Assembly: GCA_026025075.1 (NCBI GenBank)
Contig: JAPEUI010000087.1
Span: forward strand, 1 to 64,000
DNA from: Vezdaea acicularis
Taxonomy: Eukaryota
Reading direction: 5' to 3'
DNA length: 64,000 bases
Below, piece after piece: positions 36,067 through 40,103 of this stretch (positions are counted from its first letter, which is position 1; each line of letters begins with the position of its first letter). A program made the position numbers and the translations under genes. The notes under the pieces are model-generated. The model did no database searches. It saw only the letters and a program-made list of their open reading frames with translations, and was not told the origin of the DNA.

Positions 36067-39000
36067 CTAGGTCTCGCTGGGTTGACATCCATGACAGTAA
36101 AGCTGGATCTCGCCTAATTGTCCATGCTGAATATGATGTCGCTGCTGCACTTGCCAGTCACTGAACGCAATATGGATATCCTCATCTGAATGTATTGCCA
36201 CATAGTCACCATCTTCGTCGCGATAGCGAAGCTTTATCGTTCCACGTCCAATAGATAAGTTCGTGAACCGAGATAATTTTGCGTCGATGCGGTCCACTAG
36301 GCTTTGATAGCCAATACTCAAAGGAGCTACGAGAGTGACATAGTTGTTGTCAAAGGACACTTTGACCTTCAACGAATGTATAATAGGCGAATCATGTATC
36401 GCCGGAATGGAGGTAGCAGCGACCGGAGGAGAGATTGTCCGAGATTCTTGAGTTGTAATAGAGGAAGGAGTGGTTGTCTGCGACCTTTGCAGCATATTCT
36501 GATAGTCTTGTTGCTGATTCAGTCGCTCACGCTGAATACTGGGAGATTGAGTGGCGGAGCGCATCGGTAACTGCGAGTGATTAATGGGAGAGTTATTCTG
36601 GCTCCTGTTTACGGGACCTCTCATGTGGGCCATATGTGCGGGGAATGGGGGTACTGGCACGTCGGGAACTGCAGGTTGGCCCATTTGACCGTTGGGCAGC
36701 GGTCGCCGTCCATTTGGATTATTATGTATGTCCGGACTACTAGCAGATCGCAAGCGATTTTGTGCCAGTGCAATTTGCTGCGAGTTTTGTTGGGCCATTG
36801 CAGGCAGGGAAGGGCGTTGGACCGAGCGGCCGCCGATAGCAAAGCCGTTCATGGGCGATTGCCCATCGCGAGAGGGAGTCCGACCTATTGCCGGAGCAGT
36901 GAAACGATTGTGATCTTCTGGCCACCCATTATTTGGTGTTGGCTGGCGGGGGAATGGATACATCCCTGATGAGTTGCTTGTTCGGGTTGATATGGGCGAA
37001 TCGGCTCCAGGTGAGAAATAAGAATTTCCGCCATTCTCGAGATTGGGTGAGGTAGTGCCAGGCGCTACCTGGGTGTGCACGCTCAGAGGAGGCTGTGTAA
37101 AACCCATCGGGTATCTCGGCGTCGTTGATCTTCCAAAACCCTGTGGCGGGCCACTCTCTCCAGTCGCAGATCTTGACCGTAAACTAGTGCTTGAAGCATT
37201 CCGGCTCATGGCAAATTCAGAGTTATTGGTTCCAATCAGAGTGCCAGTCTCTGTGTCATCATCATCATTGTCTTCCTTATACGGGTTGTGCATAGGTTGG
37301 CCGCCTTGATTTACCCATGCAAATTCCGTGTCAGAAGTCTTTCCAGGCTTGAAAGATCCGCCTGCTATCTTCCCATTACCGACATTGGCAAGTCGCTGGT
37401 GATCGACAAGCTTAAACCACTTTTTCATCACCTCTTCATTTTGAAACCTGATAACAAAGTTCTCCACTCCTGGATCCCCTTTCCAGAAGATTTGAATTGT
37501 GTATGAACCTGTGAGAGTCAGCTTGTTTGACATCGTTTCCTAAGAAATACATATCCGTACCAGGTTTTGCGAGTTGAACCGTGTCGGTAACATTCTGCAT
37601 GAATATTCTTCCCTTCAGTTGTAGCCTCGGCTTTCCCTTTTTATCGGCTGTGGGCTTGTTGTTGCCCATAAGCTTTTTAGGCTTATTTGGATTTATGTCC
37701 TTACAGCATAGGAGAATGCGTTCAAAGAGGTATATTTTATACTGGTAGCACCGTGGCGATTTGATCGCCATCTCGTCAGTATACTTTCTCTCAAACGCAG
37801 TCTTGCTTCTCAAAGATTTGCGGCCTTCTTTCCCTAGGAATGTTTCGTTCAGGTCCCTCGTATTGCGGTCTATTGCCTCCAGGAATGTTGTACCCGTGCT
37901 CAAGGGCCCATTCCAGCTCAAATGGAAGTCCAGTGGTGACTTTGTCAACTTATTTGAACGCCGTAACACCTGAAATGTGGCTCTAAACGATGAAAGAATG
38001 GTGCGAAATTGCACAGAACGGAATTTCAAGTCTAATCTGAAATTAAACATCTGGAGAAGCCCTTTACGTTTCTTCCTCTTAGCCAGAGGTGAGGAATTTG
38101 AAGGAGACGCAAACTCTTTTACGAGCTTGCCGCTGCGAGAAATAGAAGGAGAAGGAGAGTAAATGTTCTTCAAAGGGCTAGACTTTGAAGGTGTAGAGTT
38201 GGAGGAGCCGGAAAGTCCCAAACGGCGGATTAGACCTCCCCTAGGCCTGCCGTTAGAGGGTGGGCTGGCTAAATGCGTTGTCTTTCGGTTCAGTCCATTG
38301 TTGAAGAAATCGGTCGACCGGTTTTCGGTCGGAGACGGTTCCGACTCCTTTAAGAAGGATGCCATGGAGACTTTTGAATTTGAACGCTTGAGTTGGCCCG
38401 TGATTTCTGCGTATTTGTCCTCTACGCAGTCCTGGTCCAAAGGGTCCGGCAACGGTCGACGTTTCATCAAGGAGATGGCACGAATCCTATCCCTTGGACC
38501 AAGATCAGAGAGAATGATACTAACCTCTCTCTCGACGTCATTTTTCCCATCACTTTTTACGACAGTGAATGTGCCGAAGAGGAGCAATTCTCCAAAATGA
38601 TCGACATTATGGCCCTTCCAATCGTCGACTTGACTCCGCAGCTCTTCGACCGCATTCATGCGGAGGACCTTGTCGATGGTCTCGTTTGTCCGGTCTAAGA
38701 CGGAGGTTGCAACATGCCATCCGGCGTTTAGCTCCTCTTTCTCCAGCTCGCTTGCGTCTGATTTGTCACGCAAGTCCTTCATCAAATGTTAGCTAGGCTC
38801 TATCAAGGTCATTGGGTAGAAGTTATAAGAATACCTTGAGAAGCATGGGATACTTTGTCAGTCGCACGAAAGGCTTCATGAGAAACGTCTGCAACGTTGC
38901 CCGGTCCTGCGTCACATTTGAGCCTAGCGTGCTCAATTTATCGAACTCTCTCTGTGCTGTATCATTACACTTCGTTTGGTTGGCGACATATGGTTGATAT

Positions 39001-40103
39001 ACTTGGAAATCGTTCTGCATATCCACAAAGAGTTTTCCCCAGTGTTGTTGGTCGCTCGGGAGCGTATTCATGGTCTCTATCCGGATAAGAAACCACCTCT
39101 GGAAATCTAGTAGAGCATCTAAGTTTAGGAAGATATCATGGATGGTATCGCCAGCAATAACTCCACGCTCGTGAACGAGCTTCTTGAACTCTTGCAACGT
39201 TTCTAAATCCTGTACATACTTCCTTTCTGTTGTGACAAGTTCGTTGATGACATGGTCTCGGTGCGTTTTTGCTCGTCCAGTCTCGCCAGTAATCGTGTCT
39301 GCATCACTCTCATCTTCCACCATGGGAGGGAGGAGTAAGTTCTTCTCCTGCAGAATATCTAGAACTTTATTTACAACAGCAGTAACCTATGTATGAGCTC
39401 TGTTAAATTCGGAACCAAGATGTTCAATAAGCTTATAATGGAGACAAACCTTGACGAAGCCAGTTGTATCATCGCCATACAAATCGCGAATCTGAAAGCA
39501 TTGCTCAGCCATGTTGAGATCTATCAAACAAGCTTGTACGAATTTGAACGCCGCTGCTTTGGCTTTCTTTGCCTCCGGCATATTTGATGTATCCAAGTGG
39601 AGAGGTTTGTGAGGCACAAGTGCGTTATAGATGGTCATCAATGGGAACCCTTTTCTAAAGCAGTTCCAAATTGATGTGACTGGGTCAATCATTCCGTCCG
39701 CCCGCCGATTTTCCTCCTCCATTTCTCGCATATGGACCTCGAATCCTGGGACTTGTTGCAGCCGACGCTTCAATGATAAACATATTTGGTAGAGTGATTT
39801 TGAAGCGTCAGCAACTTGGTTTATAATATTGTTGGATGCTGTGATGTTGCCGCCATTAGAGTTTGACGCCGCCATGGTATTCAAAGCTGGCTGAGGAGTT
39901 GAAGCTCCCGCTCGTGGTATTCCGTTCATCCTGGGTGCTTGAGATGATGTGGAGTTCTGAGAAGTGTGACTCTGGGTTTGGTATAACGGGCTTTGCTGAT
40001 GCAGGGCACGAGTTGGAAAAGTATTTGAGGAAGTTGTATATGAGCGCGACGGCATTCCAGGAGAAATCTCCATGGAAGTCATATGGATGTGCTCCACAAG
40101 CAT
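36067..40103 (-). CDS. CDC24: Rho guanine nucleotide exchange factor Cdc24/Scd1 (CH-DH-PH-PB1)
   Basis: CH domain (SLYQICLSL, DLYGDDTTGFVK), DH (ELVTTERKYVQDLE, KPFVRLTKYPMLL), PH (YKIYLFERILLCCK, LQLKGRIFMQNVT) and PB1 (KLRYRDEDGDYV). Introns 39387-39449, 38777-38834, 37742-38524 and 37509-37560. The start codon is uncertain. Confidence 0.95.

Follow-up and report, generated by a model that had tools for sequence, protein, structure and literature searches.

A long, stop-free intron at an ancestral position in the PH domain of Cdc24: a candidate exitron-like element in Vezdaea acicularis

Exitrons (exonic introns) of Arabidopsis and human were described by Marquez et al. (2015); they are defined by RNA reads showing both the spliced and the retained form, and at least some of them derive from ancestral coding exons (PMC4484396). 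A typical fungal intron contains stops or causes a frameshift, its retained form being subject to nonsense-mediated decay, and introns that are both stop-free and a multiple of three in length (3n) are under-represented in Yarrowia and other eukaryotes (PMC2911113). Here we describe a segment of 783 nucleotides (nt) in the Cdc24 gene of Vezdaea acicularis, found in a window of 64,000 nt that comprises positions 1 to 64,000 of the forward strand of contig JAPEUI010000087.1 (assembly GCA_026025075.1). The segment (37742..38524) lies, as do all features below unless stated otherwise, on the minus strand. It is probably an exitron-like translatable intron, that is, a real spliceosomal intron at an ancient phase-0 site that is long and has been kept 3n and stop-free.

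The Cdc24 segment resembles exitrons in having canonical splice signals, full coding potential, no stop and a 3n length (the EIx3 class), and in that its removal gives an internally deleted protein, with a protein domain and a disordered, modification-rich region being affected. In contrast to exitrons, which both-form RNA reads define, the spliced form was seen here only in transcript-like contigs of relatives, and the Cdc24 site is an ancestral intron position which is occupied by an intron in most relatives, a short one in 29 distinct sequences, and this points to an intron origin (compared with PMC4484396). It shares with the ordinary retained introns of fungi the spliceosomal GT-AG type, a conserved site and a host gene with otherwise short introns. 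It differs from them in that the 312- to 909-nt stop-free 3n state of the Cdc24 intron has been held across several classes, and its long persistence is unusual because such introns are under-represented elsewhere (compared with PMC2911113). Within the Cdc24/Scd1 family, the window gene has the complete CH, DH, PH and PB1 architecture, and its flanks are 55-70% identical to other Pezizomycotina Cdc24 proteins; however, canonical proteins (about 960-1060 amino acids, aa) have 24-27 residues from FG.LL to Y..YLF, whereas the window gene can encode 285. No description of a fungal Cdc24 exitron or retained-intron isoform was found in the literature searched, which left subscription journals mostly outside its scope.

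The host gene was identified as Cdc24 in Pfam, where CDC24 calponin, RhoGEF, PH_10 and PB1 were all matched. The calponin-type N-terminal domain (PF06395, E = 4e-28) and the DH (RhoGEF) domain (PF00621, E = 7.8e-29) are followed by the PH domain (PF15411 at 4e-20 and 2.1e-7, one match on each side of intron 4) and a C-terminal PB1 domain (PF00564, E = 5.4e-8), and the PH_10 match was broken exactly at the 783-nt segment. The segment begins with the 5' splice site GTTAGT (38519..38524, in-frame Val-Ser) and ends with the 3' splice site CAG (37742..37744, in-frame Gln). Upstream of its 3' end there is a branch-site-like ACTGAC (37775..37780, in-frame Thr-Asp), the final base of the intron lying 34 nt downstream of the branch A, and the three signals together fit a U2-type spliceosomal intron. 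The length is a multiple of three, 3 x 261 codons. No stop was found in the Cdc24 frame, compared to 18 and 13 in the other two sense frames and 14, 3 and 15 in the antisense frames; none of 20000 dinucleotide-preserving shuffles of the segment was stop-free in frame, the shuffle mean being 9.4 stops. Removal of the segment fuses ...NDVERE to YKIYLFERILLCCK, a stretch that is uninterrupted in short homologues (P0007 and P0025, for example), and the junction between ERE and YKIYLF is the same as in those homologues. When translated, the segment contains 15% Ser and 7% Pro, with nine SP sites and one TP site (10 [ST]P), and 49 K+R vs 23 D+E residues (net charge +26), including the polybasic cluster KRKKRK at insert residues 149-154 (38063..38080). 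A sequence-only reading of the window had placed the segment between these same three signals, and had reported 261 stop-free codons, a contiguous PH sequence upon removal and a basic Ser/Pro-rich insert with many SP sites and KRKKRK; all of this was confirmed.

The site was then compared among relatives in metagenome contigs scanned with an alignment of relatives. Among the best 80 of 240 loci, 76 had both flanking anchors and, together with the window, gave 58 distinct sequences. In 52 of the 58, an intron with the boundaries GT...[CT]AG was inserted precisely where the ER[EDQ]/KE codon would otherwise adjoin the Y codon, and the site was without an intron in the remaining six. Three of these (L042, L067 and L068) were single full-length open frames on contigs of approximately 4 kb and were transcript-like. 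No intron was present, either, in the genomic-looking loci L057, L059 and L069, by their flanks Capnodiales-like and Pleosporales-like, indicating outright loss of the intron in some lineages.

Short introns of 49-150 nt were present at the site in 29 distinct sequences, only one of which was 3n and stop-free (L029, 81 nt). Long introns (at least 245 nt, the window's own excluded) were present in 22 distinct sequences, and 16 of these were 3n and stop-free; by grouping of near-identical sequences there were 13 long-intron lineages, eight with an open frame and five with a broken one. The open-frame introns were 753 or 762 nt (L001, L002, L003, L005 and L006), 726 nt (L013), 909 nt (L011, L012, L015 and L018), 897 nt (L016 and L019), 600 nt (L028), and 327, 333 and 312 nt (L048, L077 and L050, respectively). 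The broken-frame introns were 400 nt (L020 and L021), 451 nt (L026), 245 nt (L061), 784 nt with six stops (L025) and 774 nt with nine stops (L051). A 3n, stop-free intron of 312-909 nt at this site was found in Lecanoromycetes, Geoglossomycetes and some Leotiomycetes. Since the frame is broken in six distinct long introns, splicing is required there for Cdc24 to be made, and the segment works as an intron. By this comparison of sequences, the segment is probably a spliceosomal intron, and its site is an ancient phase-0 intron position (between ERE and Y) in the Cdc24 PH domain and not an intronised exon.

Two of the broken-frame types showed further features. In L025 (3210-3994), coding-type ends (EREVRLMFDEINP... 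and ...KLANEQGILTPIVYQ) were still recognisable in an intron whose length is 3n+1 and in which each frame contains six to seven stops; this may be an open-frame insert that decayed recently, or the result of a misassembly. The 774-nt intron with nine stops was found at the site in the Onygenales-type Cdc24 loci L051, L053, L054 and L056, and gene models of related species (P0097, P0114 and P0119) carried odd partial inserts of 46-127 aa without a terminal Q, probably because the splice sites were mispredicted.

When the insert ends were compared in 91 stored insert-bearing proteins, the first residue was V in 90 and the last was Q in 89. The second residue was S, C, R or G in 90 (52, 15, 14 and 9, respectively), exactly the four residues of NGT codons, and A[DN] (GCT-RAC) was found at -13/-12 in 68; the exceptions to the pattern of insert ends were P0015, P0097 and P0114. 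At the DNA level the second codon was AGT, GGT, TGT, CGT or CGA, with G at +5 in 11/11 sequences while the residue varied, and CAG terminated the insert in every open-frame sequence. The motif NCT-RAC was found at 34 nt from the 3' end in 8/10 open-frame sequences compared and in the broken-frame L025 (9/11), and was missing in L011 and L015. The branch pair was NCT-GAC or NCT-AAC, the T being always the third base of the first codon and the distance always 34 nt. Because G at +5 and the branch T are fixed while residues vary, selection appears to act on GTNNGT, CTRAC and CAG, a pattern which protein-level selection does not predict. In the loci compared, the predicted splice signals are conserved at the nucleotide level.

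These signals bear directly on one rival explanation, namely that the segment is a never-spliced coding insertion in a PH loop, with GT, CTGAC and CAG being relics of an ancestral intron or chance. The frame is open, such loop insertions are tolerated, and the homologous segment is annotated as coding in many public gene models; in addition, no spliced RNA was found for the window organism, the single RNA contig obtained covering exon 3 only. Such an insertion does not explain why G at +5 and NCT-RAC are kept while residues vary, and the relatives with a broken frame must splice at the same site. Moreover, two Parmeliaceae transcript-like contigs lack the segment precisely, as described below, and we consider a never-spliced insertion improbable.

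The first of these contigs, P0089, is a 993-aa single open frame on a 5.9-kb contig, which opens 15 codons ahead of the Met given in the annotation and contains all four domains. It was 98-99% identical on both sides of the site to Letharia lupina P0022 (1281 aa), and exactly the 300-aa V...Q segment was absent from it. In the second, P0104 (997 aa, also on a 5.9-kb contig), 104/104 flank residues matched the genomic open reading frame (ORF) P0123, and the insert was absent. Both contigs are from Parmeliaceae, and the genomic frames of the same species carry the segment. As genomic frames stop in introns 2 and 4, a full-length single frame would come from processed RNA, and from these contigs we infer that the homologous segment is spliced out precisely in relatives. 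In Lasallia pustulata, the gene model P0027 is short (1035 aa), and the genomic ORF P0003, which matches it at 281/282 residues after the site, carries the insert. The full-length transcript-like Leotiomycete contig without the insert (L068) was also considered for such a pair and was rejected, being approximately 70% identical to insert-bearing Leotiomycete loci and therefore unpairable.

The open frame has been maintained over considerable divergence. When substitutions were placed at random at 41% of sites, the level found between L001 and L013, one of 5000 simulated copies of the L001 insert remained stop-free, and at 10% of sites 219 of 5000 did. Real lineages at or past 41% divergence are still open, and only in the Cdc24 frame; the other five frames carried stops in all 11 loci examined. 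By this measure, the frame is kept open well past the neutral expectation. Among the close relatives L012, L015 and L018, differences by codon position were 4, 3 and 15 (binomial P = 0.0009). The sole indel between close relatives within the insert was 9 nt long, and indels outside the insert were of 1-2 nt. Three motifs were found to recur across classes: IFDxLDP near the start, F/W-N-G-P...T-x-F-L at a distance of approximately 45-70 residues from the end, and, as the terminal motif, [LM]-G-[IL]-x-x-P...Q, and the third positions of their Asn, Gly and Pro codons vary. In the window, the N-terminal motif VSIILSDLGP (38495..38524) is related to the V-x-x-IFDxLDP of Lecanoromycetes. The second motif, WNGPLSTGTTFL (37880..37915), is kept across classes with synonymous codon changes, and the C-terminal motif, FERKYTDEMAIKSPRCYQ (37742..37795), contains the branch site, its Pro being conserved while third bases vary. 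In these respects the insert behaves like a translated, fast-evolving disordered region and not like a neutral intron.

A similar distribution was found in proteins. With a query composed of exon 3, the segment and exon 4, most of the relatives listed (best 120 of 348) had 24-27 residues between FG.LL and Y..YLF, and 130-370 residues were found at that place in gene models of Lecanoromycetes, Geoglossomycetes and some Leotiomycetes. The Lecanoromycetes with the long form were, under the taxon names given by the source, Psora, Letharia, Dirinaria, Thelocarpon, Pycnora, Sarea and many Teloschistaceae. When the Letharia insert was searched among proteins of 30-703 aa and of 704-2242 aa, 53 more clusters were obtained among the shorter proteins. 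Of these, 44 Parmeliaceae clusters (P0122-P0165) were genomic frames running from the start of exon 3 through an insert of approximately 300 aa and exon 4 into intron 4, all open; P0173 was one cluster with an in-frame internal shortening, and P0174 was a weak match. In P0173 compared to P0149, both Parmeliaceae, approximately 50 residues of the insert start and 25 of the insert end were kept and the middle, of approximately 200 residues, was absent in frame; constraint seems to act mainly on the insert ends, where the motifs and splice signals are located. At least four K/R in six residues were present in the window's own sequence (WIN) and in seven other Lecanoromycete-type inserts examined, with net charges of +7 to +20 in these seven, and in none of four Geoglossum- or Leotiomycete-type inserts, which are not basic.

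The position of the insert in the protein was examined with AlphaFold, for which P0072 (1083 aa, a gene model from Teloschistaceae) was modelled with a 43-row alignment. The DH-PH module was modelled with confidence, with strand beta1 at 325-335, beta2 and beta3 at 537-552 (beta2 at 537-543) and the C-terminal PH helix at 625-648. The insert (346-537), between beta1 and beta2, had a predicted local distance difference test (pLDDT) score below 50 and two weak helices. In this model, the insert is a loop between PH strands beta1 and beta2, with the fold otherwise intact, and the suggestion that retention would give a split PH domain was overstated. The beta1-beta2 loop of PH domains faces the membrane and often contacts phosphoinositides. 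A basic, phosphorylatable loop in that position may change membrane affinity or localisation.

In the exitron-like reading, splicing would give canonical Cdc24 of about 1019 aa with an ordinary PH domain, and retention would give an in-frame protein of approximately 1280 aa with a 261-aa disordered, basic, Ser/Pro-rich loop between PH beta1 and beta2. One gene may in this way provide a short and a long Cdc24 in the window organism. The long form would be translated and either tolerated or useful, and its polybasic, SP-rich loop may alter membrane binding, phospho-regulation or localisation.

The Cdc24 coding region extends, from start to stop and with four GT-AG introns, over 36067..40082. The start at 40082 was deduced from the N-termini of homologues and the stop is the end of the ORF 36067..37539; the domains are those matched in Pfam, and the five exon blocks were mapped by tblastn with the two short homologues, P0007 and P0025. 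Intron 1 (39387..39449) is 63 nt, intron 2 (38777..38834) is 58 nt and intron 4 (37509..37560) is 52 nt. Exon 3 (38525..38776) encodes the end of the DH domain, the linker and PH strand beta1, and ends in ...NDVERE; it is followed by the 783-nt intron, which is in phase 0 and open over all of its 261 codons, at the same site as in relatives. Exon 4 (37561..37741) encodes PH strands beta2 and beta3 (YKIYLFERILLCCK..., strands taken from the P0072 model) and a basic loop. An in-frame TAG ends intron 1 and a TAA is the fourth codon of intron 2. Intron 4 has no in-frame stop of its own and shifts the frame, a stop then being met at 37436. The earlier statement that the other three introns are 52-63 nt and carry in-frame stops at or near their boundaries was therefore correct as to the lengths and, as to the stops, for introns 1 and 2 but not for intron 4. 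In several relatives (P0003, P0016, P0018-P0023, P0026 and P0031), ORF callers also read through intron 4 in frame, with 21-26 extra residues, indicating that the corresponding 'proteins' in public collections (905-1066 aa) result from read-through of genomic sequence.

Several findings weigh against an exitron-like role of the segment. Between L001 and L013, the nonsynonymous (dN) and synonymous (dS) rates were 0.52 and 0.90 in the insert, with 101, 83 and 100 differences by codon position, that is, weak residue constraint, compared to 0.05 and 1.0 in the flanking exons; a similar dN/dS pattern was found for L048 vs L077. Among the close relatives L001-L006 (group A), differences by codon position were 3, 4 and 3. 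Five long-intron lineages were without an open frame. In addition, of the 53 clusters found with the Letharia insert, seven from Parmeliaceae (P0166-P0172) start or stop within the insert, possibly because the frame is broken, so that the long form would be dispensable in some lineages. The 80 loci had been ranked by tblastn against an insert-containing query, which favours open frames, and protein databases list only open frames, so that the counts given above, including 16 of 22, are biased towards open frames. A search of 1.84 billion representatives by HMMER with the insert alone gave no match at E <= 0.001; as Pfam likewise found no family in it, the insert corresponds to no known domain and to no mobile element that could be recognised. 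As for the retained form, no unannotated frame joining exon 2 to the insert was found among the proteins of 30-703 and 704-2242 aa, nor was any transcript-like contig that keeps the insert and has lost the introns next to it, in contig collections which drop rare forms and in which retained forms may therefore have been missed, and every insert-bearing protein reaching upstream of exon 3 was an annotators' gene model. A single 246-nt contig, about 97% alike, was obtained from one lichen metatranscriptome run (0.06 share of sampled words); it covers 38538-38779, lies on exon 3 only and ends 14 nt before the donor, leaving the junction uncovered.

The core idea of the sequence-only reading, that the segment is an intron and a coding sequence at once, is nevertheless backed by the splice signals, the open frame and the two Parmeliaceae contigs. 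Its proposal to look for a long 3n stop-free intron in orthologues was borne out by 16 of the 22 long introns and failed in the six that are broken. Of the dN/dS comparison which it also proposed, the insert values of L001 vs L013 gave only the weak constraint noted above, and a third-position excess was confined to L012, L015 and L018.

The likeliest of the rival explanations is a constitutive intron, with a long form that has no function of its own and an open frame that serves as a fail-safe for a long intron which is spliced inefficiently. In a genome with introns of approximately 50-60 nt, an unspliced message that is translated into working Cdc24 would do less harm than one that is degraded or yields a truncated CH-DH fragment. 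It agrees with such a fail-safe that only spliced transcript-like forms were seen in relatives, that insert residues are near neutral at medium divergence, that the gene was kept in several lineages in which the frame was lost or the intron became shorter, and that the remaining introns of the window gene are 52-63 nt. In contrast, the motifs of the insert are kept at the protein level across classes with synonymous changes, and one group of close relatives shows the third-position excess. Stop-free 3n introns are normally counter-selected (PMC2911113 and PMC4484396). A fail-safe frame held for so long would be unusual. On this evidence a purely constitutive intron is unlikely.

It is very improbable that the open frame is kept for another product than Cdc24, be it a nested or antisense gene or an intron-hosted structured RNA. 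In favour of such a product, there is a 145-aa antisense ORF at 38163-38600 on the plus strand, and the RNA of the whole intron folds with slightly greater stability than shuffles do (z = -1.69, 20 shuffles). Against it, stops were present in the antisense frames at each of the 11 loci examined, by which an antisense or nested gene was rejected, the region 37600-38700 had no Rfam match at E up to 1, the insert had no Pfam family, and the open frame is always continuous with the Cdc24 frame. The antisense frame itself is taken as chance, as the relatives compared do not keep it open.

The exitron-like reading thus remains the probable one. It may be extended, tentatively and with considerable doubt, to a dual-coded element that has been held for very long across at least three Pezizomycotina classes, in which selection would act on one stretch of 0.3-0.9 kb as an intron and as an open frame alike, and regulated splicing would select either canonical Cdc24 or a form with a phospho-regulatable, polybasic, disordered loop on the membrane face. 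The switch in the window organism might be an RNA duplex of approximately -20 kcal/mol responding, for example, to temperature or hydration in the lichen thallus. The 5' arm of this possible duplex (38501..38524, the first 24 nt of the intron) lies over the 5' splice site and the 3' arm (37770..37803) over the branch site. Its energy of -20.2 kcal/mol was matched by 0/129 internal windows and 3/300 shuffles, and the minimum-energy fold of the whole intron uses the same helix. In long yeast introns, the 5' splice-site region pairs with the branch-point region, and the first 24 nt of the window intron can similarly pair around the branch site. The window duplex differs from that pairing in covering the signals themselves and not neighbouring sequence, and in not being present in all relatives: it was weaker in L001, L011 and L028 and absent in L013, L016, L048, L077 and L050. 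A conserved duplex between the 5' splice site and the branch site was therefore rejected.

Public Cdc24 gene models differ by about 200-340 residues according to whether the annotator spliced the segment, as in Letharia (1281 aa compared to the 993-aa transcript-like form) and in Lasallia (1035 aa compared to an insert-bearing genomic frame). The site offers dozens of natural variants, with open frames, broken frames and short introns. If the exitron-like reading is true, it would be a clear fungal counter-example to the counter-selection of stop-free 3n introns. Cdc24 activates Cdc42 and so sets the site of fungal growth, and a conserved route to two Cdc24 forms would, if true, mean that polarity in filamentous and lichen-forming fungi is controlled at a further, hitherto undescribed level.

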